Below, piece after piece: positions 41,079 to 53,954 of a stretch of 64,000 nucleotides of DNA. The stretch lies in the NCBI GenBank assembly GCA_964016885.1, contig OZ024757.1, positions 37,200,001 to 37,264,000 of the forward strand. Direction: 5' to 3'. Both the position numbers and the translations under genes were made by a program. The notes under the pieces are model-generated. The model saw only the letters and a list, made by a program, of their open reading frames with translations, was not told the origin of the DNA and made no database searches. The number at the start of each line of letters is the position of its first letter. Position 1 is the stretch's first letter. This stretch comes from Eledone cirrhosa (Eukaryota).

Positions 41079-41127
41079 GTGCTCAACATAATAATTTTCT
41101 CACAGTAATGCAAGAATCTCCAGCCAG
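41079..41127 (+). CDS. ZDHHC14: ZDHHC14-like exon 5 (TM3-TM4 loop), followed by a U12 AT donor
   Basis: cttttcAG acceptor, 49 nt. Reads (R)AQHNNFLTVMQESPA(S), comparable to vertebrate RSQQTGFLNALKDSPAS. Immediately followed by ATATCCTTTG. Confidence 0.92.
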
Positions 41128-41137
41128 ATATCCTTTG
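41128..41137 (+). promoter_or_regulatory. U12-type (minor spliceosome) AT-AC 5' splice site
   Basis: ATATCCTTTG matches the RTATCCTTT consensus at the position and phase (2) the protein requires. Confidence 0.93.
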
Positions 41138-41729
41138 AAAATCTAATACAGATGTTTGATAATTATAATTCCTTTTAGAAAAATTTATATATATATTTTT
41201 TACAGTAATCTGGTCCATGTATGGGTGTATATGGATGAATGTGTATAAACATTTATGTATGTGTGTCTGTGTCTGTATGAATGTGCGTATATGTATGTTT
41301 ATATGAATGTATGTATGTGTGTTTGTCTATGAATGTGTGTATATGGATGTATGTGTATATACATGTATGTATTTGTGTCTATGTTTGACCGTGTTTGTAT
41401 GTATGTATTTGTCTAGATGTAAGTATGTATGAATATGTGTATATAAGAATGTCTGTATATATACATATGTGTGAATGTGTGAGTATATGTATGTATATAT
41501 ATATGTGTGTGTGTAAATTTGTTTGTGTATATATATGTGTGTGTGTGTAAGTTTGTTTCTGTATATCACTCTTGCTACAAATCTTTGTGCAGTTATCAAG
41601 TTTCTTTCCATCACAGTTATTACCGTACACAGGAATTTTGTTACTAAAATTGATTTTAATCCAATCCAGGTTTCTAAAGTTGCCTCTCTTGATCATCTTG
41701 TCATGTCAGTTATTGTATTTCATTTTACA

Positions 41730-42052
41730 TTTTACATCTGCTTTTCCCTGCTTGCAAGGGTGGGACGGGAACTGATTCTGGCTTGATTTCTACAGCTGGA
41801 TGCCCTTCCTAACACCAACCTCATTTACAGTGAGTGCTGGGTGCTTTTTTTCCGTGGCACCTCCACGACCACTTTGCAGTGGAATGATAGGGACCCCGGT
41901 CCCTATCATCTCATTTCTACAGCTGATTAAACTGGAGCAATGTGAAATAAAGTGTCTTGCTCAAGGAAACAACACATCACCCGGTCTGAGAATTGAACTC
42001 ACAACCTTTCGGTTGCAAGGCCAATGCTCTAACCACTAAGCCATGTGCCTCC
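41730..42052 (-). mobile_element. Composite SINE (family B head, aggaagggcatcc core, RTE-like tail)
   Basis: Close match to 48410-48752; tail shared with the RTE fragments (cccacccttgcaagcagggaaaa). Confidence 0.8.
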
Positions 42053-42054
42053 AT

Positions 42055-42760
42055 ATATATCTAATACTAAAGATCTACCTACCCTCCTATACAAGTACTG
42101 TGACACTAAAAGGAACTATAGTGACTGACTCAAGGCTATAGTGTTGGCAGTCAAACAGATAATATAGGGCTCAACAGAACCCTTTGGTTTGAATGAGTGT
42201 GTGACAACCTCTCTTTATCATCTTGTTTTGTCGGTTATATATGTGATACTAAAGCCCCACCTATACTGTACAAGCCCTGTGACACAAAAGGGGAAATGTG
42301 GTGAGTAAGCTGTGGCTATTGAATAGAGGTAATATAGGTTTTAAGAGGACCCTTCATTTTGGATGACAAAGTAACAATCTCTCTTTATCATCTTGTTATG
42401 TTAGCTATTGTATATCTAATACTAAAGATCCACCATATTGTTCAATTACTGCTAAAACAACTCGCTAAAAGGATATATAGGAAGTGAGCAGAAACTAGAG
42501 TTTTGGCTAAGGAGTAGAGACACTATAAGGTTTAAAAGGACCCTTCAGTTTGGCTGAGCATATAACATCTTCTCTTTATGATCTTGTCATGTCAGCTATT
42601 GTATATCTAATACTAAAGACTCACTTCCCTGTACAAGTACTGCGCCACAAAAGGGAAACGGGGAGTGTTGGCTAAGGAACAGAGGCAGGGGGACTCTTCA
42701 GTTTGGCCGAGCATATAACAACTTCTCTTTATCATCAATCCATGTCAATTATTATATATC
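42055..42760. repeat. Diverged ~180-bp tandem repeat, 4 copies
   Basis: tatatctaatactaaag...ctctttatcatcttg recurs near 42055, 42237, 42411 and 42602. Confidence 0.75.
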
Positions 42761-43310
42761 TATGGTCTCTCTACCTCTCTACTTCTGTCAGGTCCATCTC
42801 TCTACTTCTGTCAGGTCCATCTCTCTAATCTGTCAGGTCCATCTCTCTAACAACCAATCTGAATCCAAGATATTTCCTTGCTTTAATTAAGAAACAATTT
42901 CACTCAAATCATTTCCTCATTGTCTTGTCTCTCTTTTTACGTTATTATTGTAAAGACCAGTGCAGTTGGTTTTAAATGGCTGGTAATCCGTAATCGACCA
43001 AATTAAATGCATTATCTTCATCATCATCATCATCACCACCACCATCATTATCATCATCATCAGACAATGGATTGGCTGTATACGTTGTGTGTTGAACAAA
43101 ATGTCTGTATGGTATTGAGCTTCTTACAACTTTCCACGTTCTGAGTTCAAATCCTATTTGTTACTATTCCAAGGATTAGTGATTACGGAGCTATCGAAGG
43201 ACAACCCTACTGAAGTAAACCCCTTGTTGAGTCAACCACCACTGTATGCTGAAACAGCCCTCGTTAAAAGTTACTCTGACCCTGAACTAGGGAAACTGAT
43301 ATCTCATATA

Positions 43311-43373
<63 letters not shown>

Positions 43374-43661
43374 CCAGGGAGTGTAAAGTGAAGTTACTGT
43401 AGGTTTACCCATATGTATATGTATTTGTATATATGTGTATATATATATATATATATGTATGTGTGTATATATATGTATGTGTGTATATATGTATATATAT
43501 ATATATGTATTTATATATATGTATATATATATGTATGTGTGTATATATGCATATGTATATATGCATATAAATATGTATGTGTGTATATATGCATATGTAT
43601 ATGTGCATTTATATATATGTGTGTATATATGCATATATATATATATGAATGTGTGTATATA

Positions 43662-43705
<44 letters not shown>

Positions 43706-43750
43706 ATTGATATTATATAAAGGGAAACTATATTTATAAAACCATATTTA

Positions 43751-43808
43751 TTCTATTATATATATTTCAAGGGTACCAAAAATTTTGGTACGCTATCATC
43801 AGATAAAA
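43751..43808 (-). ncRNA. Type I minimal hammerhead motif, left arm of large palindrome
   Basis: Reverse complement of the 43947-44004 motif. Confidence 0.7.
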
Positions 43809-43946
43809 TACAAAATGTTTCATAAATATTTGACATGACCAAGGATGATATACCTTAACGGTTCAAGTTATCCCTGGAAAGTTATCCCTTGAACCGTTAA
43901 GGTATATCATTCTTGGTCATGTCAAATATTTATGAAACATTTTGTA

Positions 43947-52093: not shown

Positions 52094-52314
52094 CCCTTTA
52101 GCAATCACATTATTCCATATTTACTATTGTATTTTCAAGGTAAAGGCATTATCTTACATAATTATCTCACATAATATTGAATCTATGAGATTTTGATGTT
52201 ATTTACTTTGAGAATAATACCTTAATGTAGGTATGAGCAACCAGTTACTGCCGGTTTGAAAAGAAAGATGTGAGAGAATTCTGGTCAGATATTGCCAGTT
52301 TAAATTCCAAAGAG
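52094..52314 (-). mobile_element. piggyBac-type MITE (diverged)
   Basis: TTAA-CCCTTTAGCA start, same internal body as the other copies. Confidence 0.72.
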
Positions 52315-52702
52315 TTAAAAAGAAAACAGCAACAAACACATGAACAACTGTCTTTTACTATAGCCTCCGATATACTAAAACTTTGTATATAGATATCTAA
52401 ATATTGGGACTTGACTTATGGCTTTCTTTTTTAAGGACATGTGGGGCCCTTATTAATCCCTTACCTATATCACTCACTGTATTACATTCCCATTTGGCTG
52501 GCTGTGCCTTTCATGTGCTTTTTGTAAAGAAAGTAAAAAAAATTGGCTTTAAAAGTTGTGAGAGCTTTCTGTTTGTCTGTCTGTTGTGTGTGTGTTTCTG
52601 TCTTATGTGAGTGTATGTATGTGAGTGAGTGTGTGTGTGTTGGATGGACAGTCAGGCTAAGCTAATGTAATTTTCTATTGTGAAGCTTTTTCTTTATTAT
52701 TT

Positions 52703-53092
52703 ATTATTTAAGTGATTTAAAAAAAAATTACTTTGTGACTGTTGTGAGTATATTATATGTGTGTGCATACTCACAACAGTCACAAAGTAATTTTTTTTTA
52801 AAATCACTTAAATAATGGTTTCTTATATAGGCACAAGGCCAGCAATTTTTTTTTTGGTGGGGGGGAGTCGATTAAATCGACCCCAGTACATTACTGGTAC
52901 TTTATTTTATCGACCCCGTAAGGATGAAAGGCAAAGTTAACCTCGGCGGTATTCGAACTCAAGCCCTTTATGATCTGAGTTCAAATCCCGGCGACTTTCC
53001 CCTCCTTCCAAAATTGCTGGCCTTGTGCCTATATAAGAAACCATTATTTAAGTGACAAAAAAAAAAATTACTTTGTGACTGTTGTGAGTATG

Positions 53093-53100
<8 letters not shown>
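52703..53100. repeat. Inverted triplication / fold-back containing a SINE A fragment
   Basis: Segment A at 52703-52750, its reverse complement at about 52765-52816, and A again at 53043-53097; 52757-52850 pairs with 53010-53100. Confidence 0.85.
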
Positions 53101-53124
<24 letters not shown>

Positions 53125-53228
53125 AAGATGTATGTATATATGTGTGTGTGTGTGTATATTATTTTTTCTTTAAAACTCTGTGCTTAGTCTTTGAATGTTT
53201 GTAAGTTCCGCTATTGTATAGTGAATGC

Positions 53229-53246
53229 TCCTTGACTTGTTCCTAC
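53229..53246 (+). promoter_or_regulatory. U12 branch point and AC acceptor of exon 6b
   Basis: TCCTTGAC at 53229-53236 then ttgttcctAC; branch A is 11 nt from the 3' end, the same spacing as at exon 6a. Confidence 0.9.
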
Positions 53247-53349
53247 TATGGTGGAAGCTGTAATTTGTTTCTTTTCTGTGTGGTCTGTTGTTGGTCTTGC
53301 GGGCTTCCATACATATCTGGCAGCCTCAGAACAGACCACTAATGAAGAT
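53247..53349 (+). CDS. ZDHHC14: ZDHHC14-like alternative exon 6b (paralogous TM4 and TTxE motif)
   Basis: 103 nt, reads (S)[41 protein letters not shown]2 donor at 53350. Not in the ORF track. Confidence 0.94.
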
Positions 53350-53584
53350 GTAAGTATACTCTAGATTGTTCTTCATTAAATTAGATTAAAATGCAGTCAA
53401 AATAATAATAAATAATTGATTTCGAAACCTGAGAAGGATATTGATGCAGTCTGAAGACTTAACCTTTTATTATATTAAATGTCTGGTATTTATTGTTGTT
53501 GTCACTATTTGTTTTTTAAATGTTTTCTTGGTAATGTATATTAACTGAAGATCTATATATACCATCTCTCTTCCTTTTTATAAT

Positions 53585-53622
53585 ATATCTGATGAAGGAC
53601 TAGTGTCCGAAACGTTAAGACC
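53585..53622 (+). ncRNA. Hammerhead-like core in the exon 6b-7 intron
   Basis: CTGATGA-A-GGAC-TAGT-GTCC-GAAACGTTA with palindromic AACGTT stem III. Stem I pairing is poor. Confidence 0.5.
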
Positions 53623-53844
53623 CTCTTCCTGCTATTTCAAGTGTTAACCTAATATATTCTTTCCATATACTGTACCAATTGTGTTGTTATTTCTGTTTAC
53701 CTTTTAAATATATATATATATATATATATATATGCATATATTATAAAAAGGAAGAGAGATGGTATATATATATAGATATATTTATTTATTTATTTAAAAC
53801 GGTGATGATTTATGTATGTATATATTTCTTTATTTCTTTAATAG

Positions 53845-53954
53845 ATAAAAGGTTCCTTTTCATCCAAGAGAGGACAAGATAATTTTAATCCCTATAGCAG
53901 AGGGTCAATATTTAAAAATTGCCTAGTTGTATTATGTGGGCCAAATCCCCCAAG
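53845..53954 (+). CDS. ZDHHC14: ZDHHC14-like exon 7 (NPY / C-terminal conserved region)
   Basis: ttaatAG acceptor, GTAAGT donor, 110 nt. Reads [36 protein letters not shown](S). Confidence 0.96.

Follow-up and report, generated by a model that had tools for sequence, protein, structure and literature searches.

The window analysed here is a stretch of 64,000 nucleotides (nt) of the Eledone cirrhosa genome (contig OZ024757.1, positions 37,200,001 to 37,264,000). It carries part of the gene for a ZDHHC9/14/18-type palmitoyltransferase of this octopod, in which exon 6 is present as two tandem copies, 6a and 6b (Table 1). The closest proteins are those of Octopus, and the best solved relative is ZDHHC9 (8HF3, E 1.6e-134). 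The encoded protein contains the DPG motif, the DHHC cysteine-rich domain, four hydrophobic or transmembrane (TM) helices and the TTxE motif, and thereby the sequence features of the ZDHHC9/14/18 family; S-acyltransferase activity with a GCP16-type partner is predicted for it. Coding exon 1 was located outside the window, approximately 11.4 kb upstream, so that the numbering 6a/6b is right.

The original prediction had described one U12-type AT donor (position 41128) facing two paralogous exons of 103 nt, each with its own U12 branch point, AC acceptor and U2-type GT donor, and a 7145-nt hybrid stretch between them with a U2 5' end and a U12 AC 3' end. On checking the sequence, all of these elements were found at exactly these positions. 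The intron after exon 5 has the marks of the U12 AT-AC class, namely a ATATCCTT donor, a CCTTRAC branch point close to the AC acceptor and a conserved position, and the distance from the branch point to the end of the AC acceptor is 10 nt for exon 6a and for exon 6b. The motif CCTTRAC with an AC 5-12 nt downstream occurs five times on the plus strand of the 64 kb and never on the minus strand, two of the five lying directly before 6a and 6b; its chance was estimated from base composition at about 4e-5 per site. The introns measure 4871 nt (5 to 6a), 12119 nt (5 to 6b), 7743 nt (6a to 7) and 495 nt (6b to 7). Joined as 5+6a+7 or as 5+6b+7, the exons are open and in frame, while 5+6a+6b+7 and 5+7 run into stops, as had been expected from a frameshift on inclusion of both copies or neither.

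The two copies are tandem paralogues of equal length that encode the same protein segment, with a U12 intron on one side, a U2 intron on the other and hybrid ends between them. They are identical at 78 of 103 nt and 25 of 34 amino acids, and their 25 nt differences fall 9, 1 and 15 times on codon positions 1, 2 and 3. Since so many positions differ, 15 of them third positions, and since the flanks can be aligned only at the branch point and the AC, the pair represents an old duplication under selection and not a haplotype. A protein search of the 3.0-Gb genome returned exactly two exon 6 copies, 6a and 6b. A third or degenerate copy in the window was rejected, as none was found with a hidden Markov model built from 87 exon 6 peptides.

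Table 1. Exons and splice signals of the palmitoyltransferase gene, in positions of the window
Feature	Position	Strand	Remark
Coding exon 2, TM2 and DPG motif	20803..20963	+	
Gene part between coding exons 2 and 4	29707..29865	+	
Coding exon 4, DHHC motif and TM3	38560..38697	+	
Exon 5, 49 nt, TM3-TM4 loop	41079..41127	+	
U12 AT-type 5' splice site ATATCCTTT, common to both alternatives	41128..41136	+	Also at this position in orthologous loci
U12 branch point TCCTTAAC and AC acceptor of exon 6a	45981..45998	+	
Exon 6a, 103 nt, TM4 and TTxE, a-class, then U2 donor GTGAGT	45999..46101	+	Used in relatives
Hybrid interval, 7145 nt, U2 GT 5' end, U12 branch point and AC 3' end	46102..53246	+	
U12 branch point TCCTTGAC and AC acceptor of exon 6b	53229..53246	+	Spliced contigs match from exactly 53247
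Exon 6b, 103 nt, TM4 and TTxE, b-class, then U2 donor GTAAGT	53247..53349	+	Spliced contigs
Exon 7, 110 nt, U2 AG acceptor	53845..53954	+	
Exon 8, 139 nt	54598..54736	+	
Exon 9, C-terminal tail; more exons past the window	57119..57266	+	

Exon 6 forms in RNA and in other species

Four of the 24 listed sequencing runs were compared with positions 53100-54110, a stretch that contains 6b and exon 7 and not 6a. The run type is not on record; the spliced contigs argue that the runs are RNA. In a 2370-nt contig of run X24, which matches without a mismatch, 6b adjoins exon 7, bearing out the predicted junction 53349>53845, and the match begins exactly at 53247, the first base of 6b. Exon 6b likewise adjoins exon 7 in runs X12 and X2, which are from related species with one or two mismatches in 6b, so that the two exons are joined in contigs of three of the four runs. 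In the fourth, X5, the contig with exon 7 (depth 73.3) breaks off at that exon's first base, and 6b lies in a separate branch contig (depth 27.4). The break and the difference in depth, contig depth being a poor gauge of transcript level, form the pattern expected if a second exon, which would be 6a, also feeds into exon 7. The occurrence of each exon alone in mature mRNA is supported in E. cirrhosa for 6b and, through pairs of isoforms, in relatives for both.

Octopus sinensis isoforms X1 and X2 (XP_029649028.1 and XP_029649027.1, 540 amino acids each) differ at eight residues, all of them in exon 6. Both 6a and 6b forms were also found in O. vulgaris and in a protein cluster from short Logan contigs whose 6b matches Sepia (cuttlefish-like). 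Two or more exon 6 peptides between identical flanks, taken as 60 and 36 residues on either side of the 34-residue exon, were obtained from at least 19 of 46 named mollusc species (at least 19 of the 30 having two or more proteins). The molluscs with exon 6 variants include the chiton Liolophura, bivalves, gastropods and octopods, and three variants were present among the matches listed for the scallops Mizuhopecten and Argopecten and the mussel Mytilus edulis. At least three of five other lophotrochozoans, the brachiopod Lingula, the nemertean Lineus and the annelid Owenia, have same-length pairs differing only in exon 6, and their copies are more divergent than those of molluscs. No second exon 6 form was found among the matches listed in six non-lophotrochozoan sets (priapulid, amphioxus, locusts, two horseshoe crab genes and human). 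The mutually exclusive use that had been proposed is supported by these same-length isoform pairs together with the junction of 6b to exon 7.

Babylonia was rejected as an a/b isoform pair and left out of the counts, as its two proteins (P0075 and P0079) come from separate genes, one with a b-like and the other with an a-like exon 6; a gene duplication may have been followed by a division of the isoforms between the two paralogues. The exon 6 peptides of Tubulanus, Owenia and one Lineus (P0265, P0270, P0319 and P0312) are highly divergent in an otherwise near-invariant exon, and Owenia has two divergent forms, with no canonical one among the proteins seen.

The layout around exon 6 was examined in 79 metagenome loci. 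Two bivalve-like loci, L004 and L006, contain two copies, of which the a-class copy comes first; CCTTRAC..AC precedes and GT follows each of them, and exon 5 lies outside these contigs. A seeming third copy in L004 was rejected, as only the end of the exon and its donor are repeated in tandem there. The other 77 loci are single-copy, and comprise some spliced transcripts, some insect-like loci without the intron and many loci with a branch point and AC. Single-copy orthologous loci are arranged as exon 5|ATATCCTT..branch point..AC|exon 6|GT, with a U12 donor in 17 of the 24 checked, one of these being of the GT subtype. The U12 intron before exon 6 is also present in fish-like loci, while in insect-like loci exons 5 and 6 are fused and the AT-AC intron is absent. 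Because single-copy orthologous loci carry the same arrangement of donor, branch point and AC, the AT-AC intron is, as judged from these loci, ancestral, and the duplication appears patchy outside molluscs. At L005:934-1183 the same intron has switched from AT-AC to the GT-AG U12 subtype (GTATCC donor, branch point and CAG acceptor). Annelid-like loci within L011-L081 (e.g. L039:6300-6524) have the branch point TTCTTTAAC instead of TTCCTTAAC, and in annelid-like loci the U12 intron is as short as approximately 90-120 nt.

The AT-AC intron is also an annotation trap, several public proteins reading through or around it. Mis-annotated proteins of the bivalve Mactra, two Elysia species, an eel and amphioxus read through the donor, and the resulting peptide matches the window's own read-through. 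Models of Batillaria, Solemya and Pomacea end in Thr before exon 6, the residue that the AC of the acceptor and the first base of the exon would encode together, which is indirect evidence of the same intron.

The a copies have a mean identity of 0.90 with one another and the b copies of 0.82, compared with 0.79 between the two classes. Glu28 is common to most mollusc a and b copies, whereas outgroup peptides have Asn at this position. Such a pattern suggests that the mollusc copies arose on the mollusc stem, or were homogenised later, independently of the brachiopod and worm copies. The feature is far older than had been guessed: both copies are real, as claimed, and the duplication is not cephalopod-specific but at least pan-molluscan, and a brachiopod, a nemertean and an annelid have variants as well.

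Proposed mechanism and alternatives

The two exons are real and conserved, and we consider it likely, with a probability of roughly 80%, that they form a mutually exclusive cassette based on spliceosome incompatibility. U2 and U12 sites are generally not joined to each other (PMC3584512), and this established knowledge, taken with the sequence, suggests that U12/U2 incompatibility enforces exclusivity. In the ancestral ZDHHC9/14/18 (Erf2/app) gene, exon 6 would have been separated from exon 5 by a U12 AT-AC intron and followed by a U2 intron. Its tandem duplication, on the mollusc stem at the latest, would have copied the U12 branch point, the AC acceptor and the U2 donor along with the exon. 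The minor spliceosome, acting on the single AT donor, would pick one AC acceptor, and the major spliceosome would then join the GT donor of the chosen exon to exon 7. As the GT donor would be unable to use the downstream AC acceptor, and as the AT donor would find no U12 branch point at a suitable distance from exon 7 and skipping of both would be barred, exactly one copy would be included at any copy number. Leaky products would be frameshifted and would go to nonsense-mediated decay (NMD). The outcome would be two full-length enzymes (three in some bivalves) differing only in TM4 and the residues before TTxE. The choice between 6a and 6b would be regulated, and the selector is likely to be exon-definition factors, such as Nova, which acts in this way in JNK2 (PMC1874599).

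Two features of the window bear on wrongly joined products. Three AGs lie near the 6b acceptor, and all give stops if 6a is joined to them. At exon 7 a branch-point-like TCTTTAAT lies directly against the AG, and by the spacing rule a U12 branch point in that position is too close to be used. It had been argued that skipping both exons would join a U12 AT donor to the U2 AG of exon 7; this layout holds.

Several points weigh against the incompatibility cassette. AT-AG termini do occur in U12 introns (PMC1557818, Table 2), so that terminal dinucleotides alone are no absolute bar, and the bar on skipping both exons rests on the branch point. Splicing in E. cirrhosa RNA was seen for 6b alone, 6a lying outside the stretch compared. 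No tandem exon 6 peptide was present in 353 proteins, the single flagged case being a chance motif, but transcripts with both 6a and 6b are frameshifted, would go unannotated and so would be missing from protein sets anyway. Among the 30 mollusc species with two or more proteins, 11 gave no isoform pair among the matches listed (ten with a single variant, and Babylonia with its two genes), the isoforms of relatives being database gene models and contigs in which a single listed variant is no proof of a single exon. Splice sites of both copies were read directly only in the window, L004 and L006, and the three-variant species, the brachiopod and the worms are known from proteins alone. In the exon 6 tree, built on 34 columns and including Babylonia labelled as an a/b pair, none of 40 inner branches is well supported; the a and b labels cluster on it (3 changes vs 11.7 when shuffled), too weakly to decide between one and several origins. 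The codon at 46009-46011 makes residue 4 of exon 6a Val, where 17 of 18 a-class peptides, including those of other cephalopods, have Ala; this Val is a species change, a polymorphism or a base error.

That exclusivity comes mainly from NMD of products with both exons or neither, with the U12/U2 mismatch as an inherited by-product, would agree with an exon length that is not a multiple of 3, with the stops reached by both wrong products and with the finding that such lengths occur in 60% of human clusters of mutually exclusive exons (MXE; PMC5740500). Nevertheless, the hybrid interval ends in GT..AC with nearby AGs that are unproductive, and U12 acceptors have been kept on both copies in the two bivalve-like loci, which make this account improbable. 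Somewhat less probable still is that 6a in E. cirrhosa is a remnant seldom or never spliced, 6b alone being used. The unusual Val4, the presence of 6b in 11 of the 12 listed O. sinensis proteins and the splicing of 6b here, seen in a stretch without 6a, would all fit a remnant, but 6a is open, has consensus signals and shares 33 of 34 residues with the 6a of O. sinensis. Full-length 6a proteins are also found in O. sinensis, O. vulgaris and cuttlefish-like RNA contigs, and the depth pattern of X5 suggests a large second path.

It is very unlikely that competing RNA structures, of the docker and selector type of Dscam, set the exclusivity or the choice. Three-exon arrays are usually explained in this way (PMC6071210), and in two of 12 duplex tests the pairing scored better than in every one of 100 shuffles, but both duplexes are long and interrupted and form between low-complexity tracts rich in TA/TG. 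Besides the branch point and donor, no intronic element is shared by the window, L004 and L006. Docker/selector pairing was rejected as driven by the low-complexity tracts, and no conserved docking site was found among the three loci; RNA structure biasing the choice could coexist with a spliceosome lock. The chance that a haplotype or an assembly error accounts for the second exon is practically negligible. No point in its favour was found, and conservation refutes it: the copies differ at a quarter of their positions between unalignable flanks, each has its own conserved counterpart across cephalopods, and the same tandem layout recurs in two other genomic loci.

Known cassettes and the encoded enzyme

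The incompatibility mechanism is known from JNK and TMEM87. Exons 6a and 6b of JNK (MAPK8/9/10) are tandem paralogues flanked by a U2 intron on one side and a U12 intron on the other, and the hybrid intron that separates them cannot be spliced (PMC1874599, PMC3584512, PMC8329584); the E. cirrhosa gene resembles them in all of these respects. It differs in that the JNK hybrid has a U12 5' and a U2 3' end, two U2 acceptors and two U12 donors competing, whereas here the hybrid is U2 at its 5' and U12 at its 3' end and one U12 AT donor chooses between AC acceptors 4.9 and 12.1 kb away. Exons 11 and 11a of TMEM87A/B are also mutually exclusive at a minor intron, and are tissue-specific (PMC6717393, PMC8329584), but they have the JNK polarity and belong to vertebrates and to another protein family.

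The original prediction had taken the gene to be an independent case of mirror polarity. The polarity is indeed opposite to that of JNK, but it is probably not unique. In the JNK gene of the E. cirrhosa genome (G000:C8:18493300-18494194; L083, L086) a GT-type U12 donor lies right after the codons for FPGTD, a motif that we take to precede the His at which the alternative exons of MAPK14 (p38 alpha) start. These are two mutually exclusive exons of 80 nt, starting at His in frame 1 (PMC5740500 Dataset EV4), and MAPK14 has a U12 intron (PMC8883539). Because their start coincides with the homologous MAPK U12 donor, the MAPK14 exons probably share the mirror polarity of the window, although MAPK14 encodes a kinase and the homologous MAPK donor is of the GT subtype, not AT-AC. 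No open-access paper stating this polarity for MAPK14 was found among the matches listed. A pattern search for p38 in the E. cirrhosa genome was discarded, its matches being JNK and an unrelated gene. A GTATCCTT donor also occurs in a further gene, which is identical on two small contigs (L084 and L085; G000 C1017 and C1093) that are probably redundant haplotigs.

Other members of the ZDHHC9/14/18 family (yeast Erf2, insect app) share the DPG motif, the DHHC domain, four helices and TTxE, but differ in that the second exon 6 variant was not found among the matches listed for the six non-lophotrochozoan sets. No paper on such an exon 6 pair in a DHHC gene or in molluscs was found among the matches listed in open-access full text, subscription journals lying outside this coverage. 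Only five human MXE clusters are described as using U2/U12 incompatibility (PMC5740500; six in the preprint), and regulated alternative splicing at minor introns has been described as almost absent (PMC3584512). What is new here is the choice between AT-AC acceptors, the DHHC enzyme, the at least pan-molluscan age and the probable three-exon arrays. The mechanism has been considered limited to clusters of exactly two exons (PMC6071210). Scallop and mussel genes with three variants would be counterexamples, provided that their splice sites match; the cassette is probably expandable to three exons. The gene offers a natural, deeply conserved system for studying the factors behind U12 3' splice-site choice between distant AC acceptors.

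Exon 6 aligns to residues 226-259 of human ZDHHC9 (8HF3) and encodes the fourth hydrophobic helix, TM4, and the TTxE motif. The walls of the acyl pocket are formed by TM1, TM3 and TM4, and its tail-end residues are diverse (bioRxiv 10.1101/2022.12.12.520165); TM4 is not named in the four GCP16 interfaces described in the passages of the structure literature. With the TM3-TM4 loop luminal (PMC8059564), the octopus differences at positions 1, 2, 4, 5 and 6 would lie near the tail end, those at 14-15 in mid-helix and those at 25-26 before TTxE. The differences between octopus 6a and 6b are conservative (Ile/Val, Thr/Ala). We tentatively suggest, as the best guess at a purpose, that the exons tune the acyl-chain pocket and preference, or helix packing, by tissue. 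Natural enzyme pairs differing only in one wall of the acyl pocket would in any case be a clean test of DHHC acyl-chain selectivity. A Lophotrochozoa-wide age of the cassette would correspond to more than 500 million years. More speculative, and rather unlikely in its entirety, is an acceptor-choice cassette kept for this time across Lophotrochozoa, extended to three exons in scallops and mussels without RNA structure and serving as a tissue switch of acyl-chain preference. If this is true, spliceosome type would lock an array that is open-ended in size, and splicing would switch the lipid selectivity of a DHHC enzyme.

Other features of the gene were noted in passing. Exon 5 contains a weak GT site at 41105, and its joining to exon 7 would leave out TM4 without loss of frame; the residues at this site are not kept outside cephalopods, and no evidence of its use was found. 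The C-terminal tail is also alternatively spliced in Octopus, with at least 13 annotated isoforms in O. sinensis; in E. cirrhosa further exons lie past the window (L091), downstream of 57266. Well-preserved intronic minisatellites lie at 58172-59425 (59 nt x 21), 54123-54424 (75 nt x 4) and 60933-61375 (89 nt x 5), and the window has many TA microsatellites beside them.

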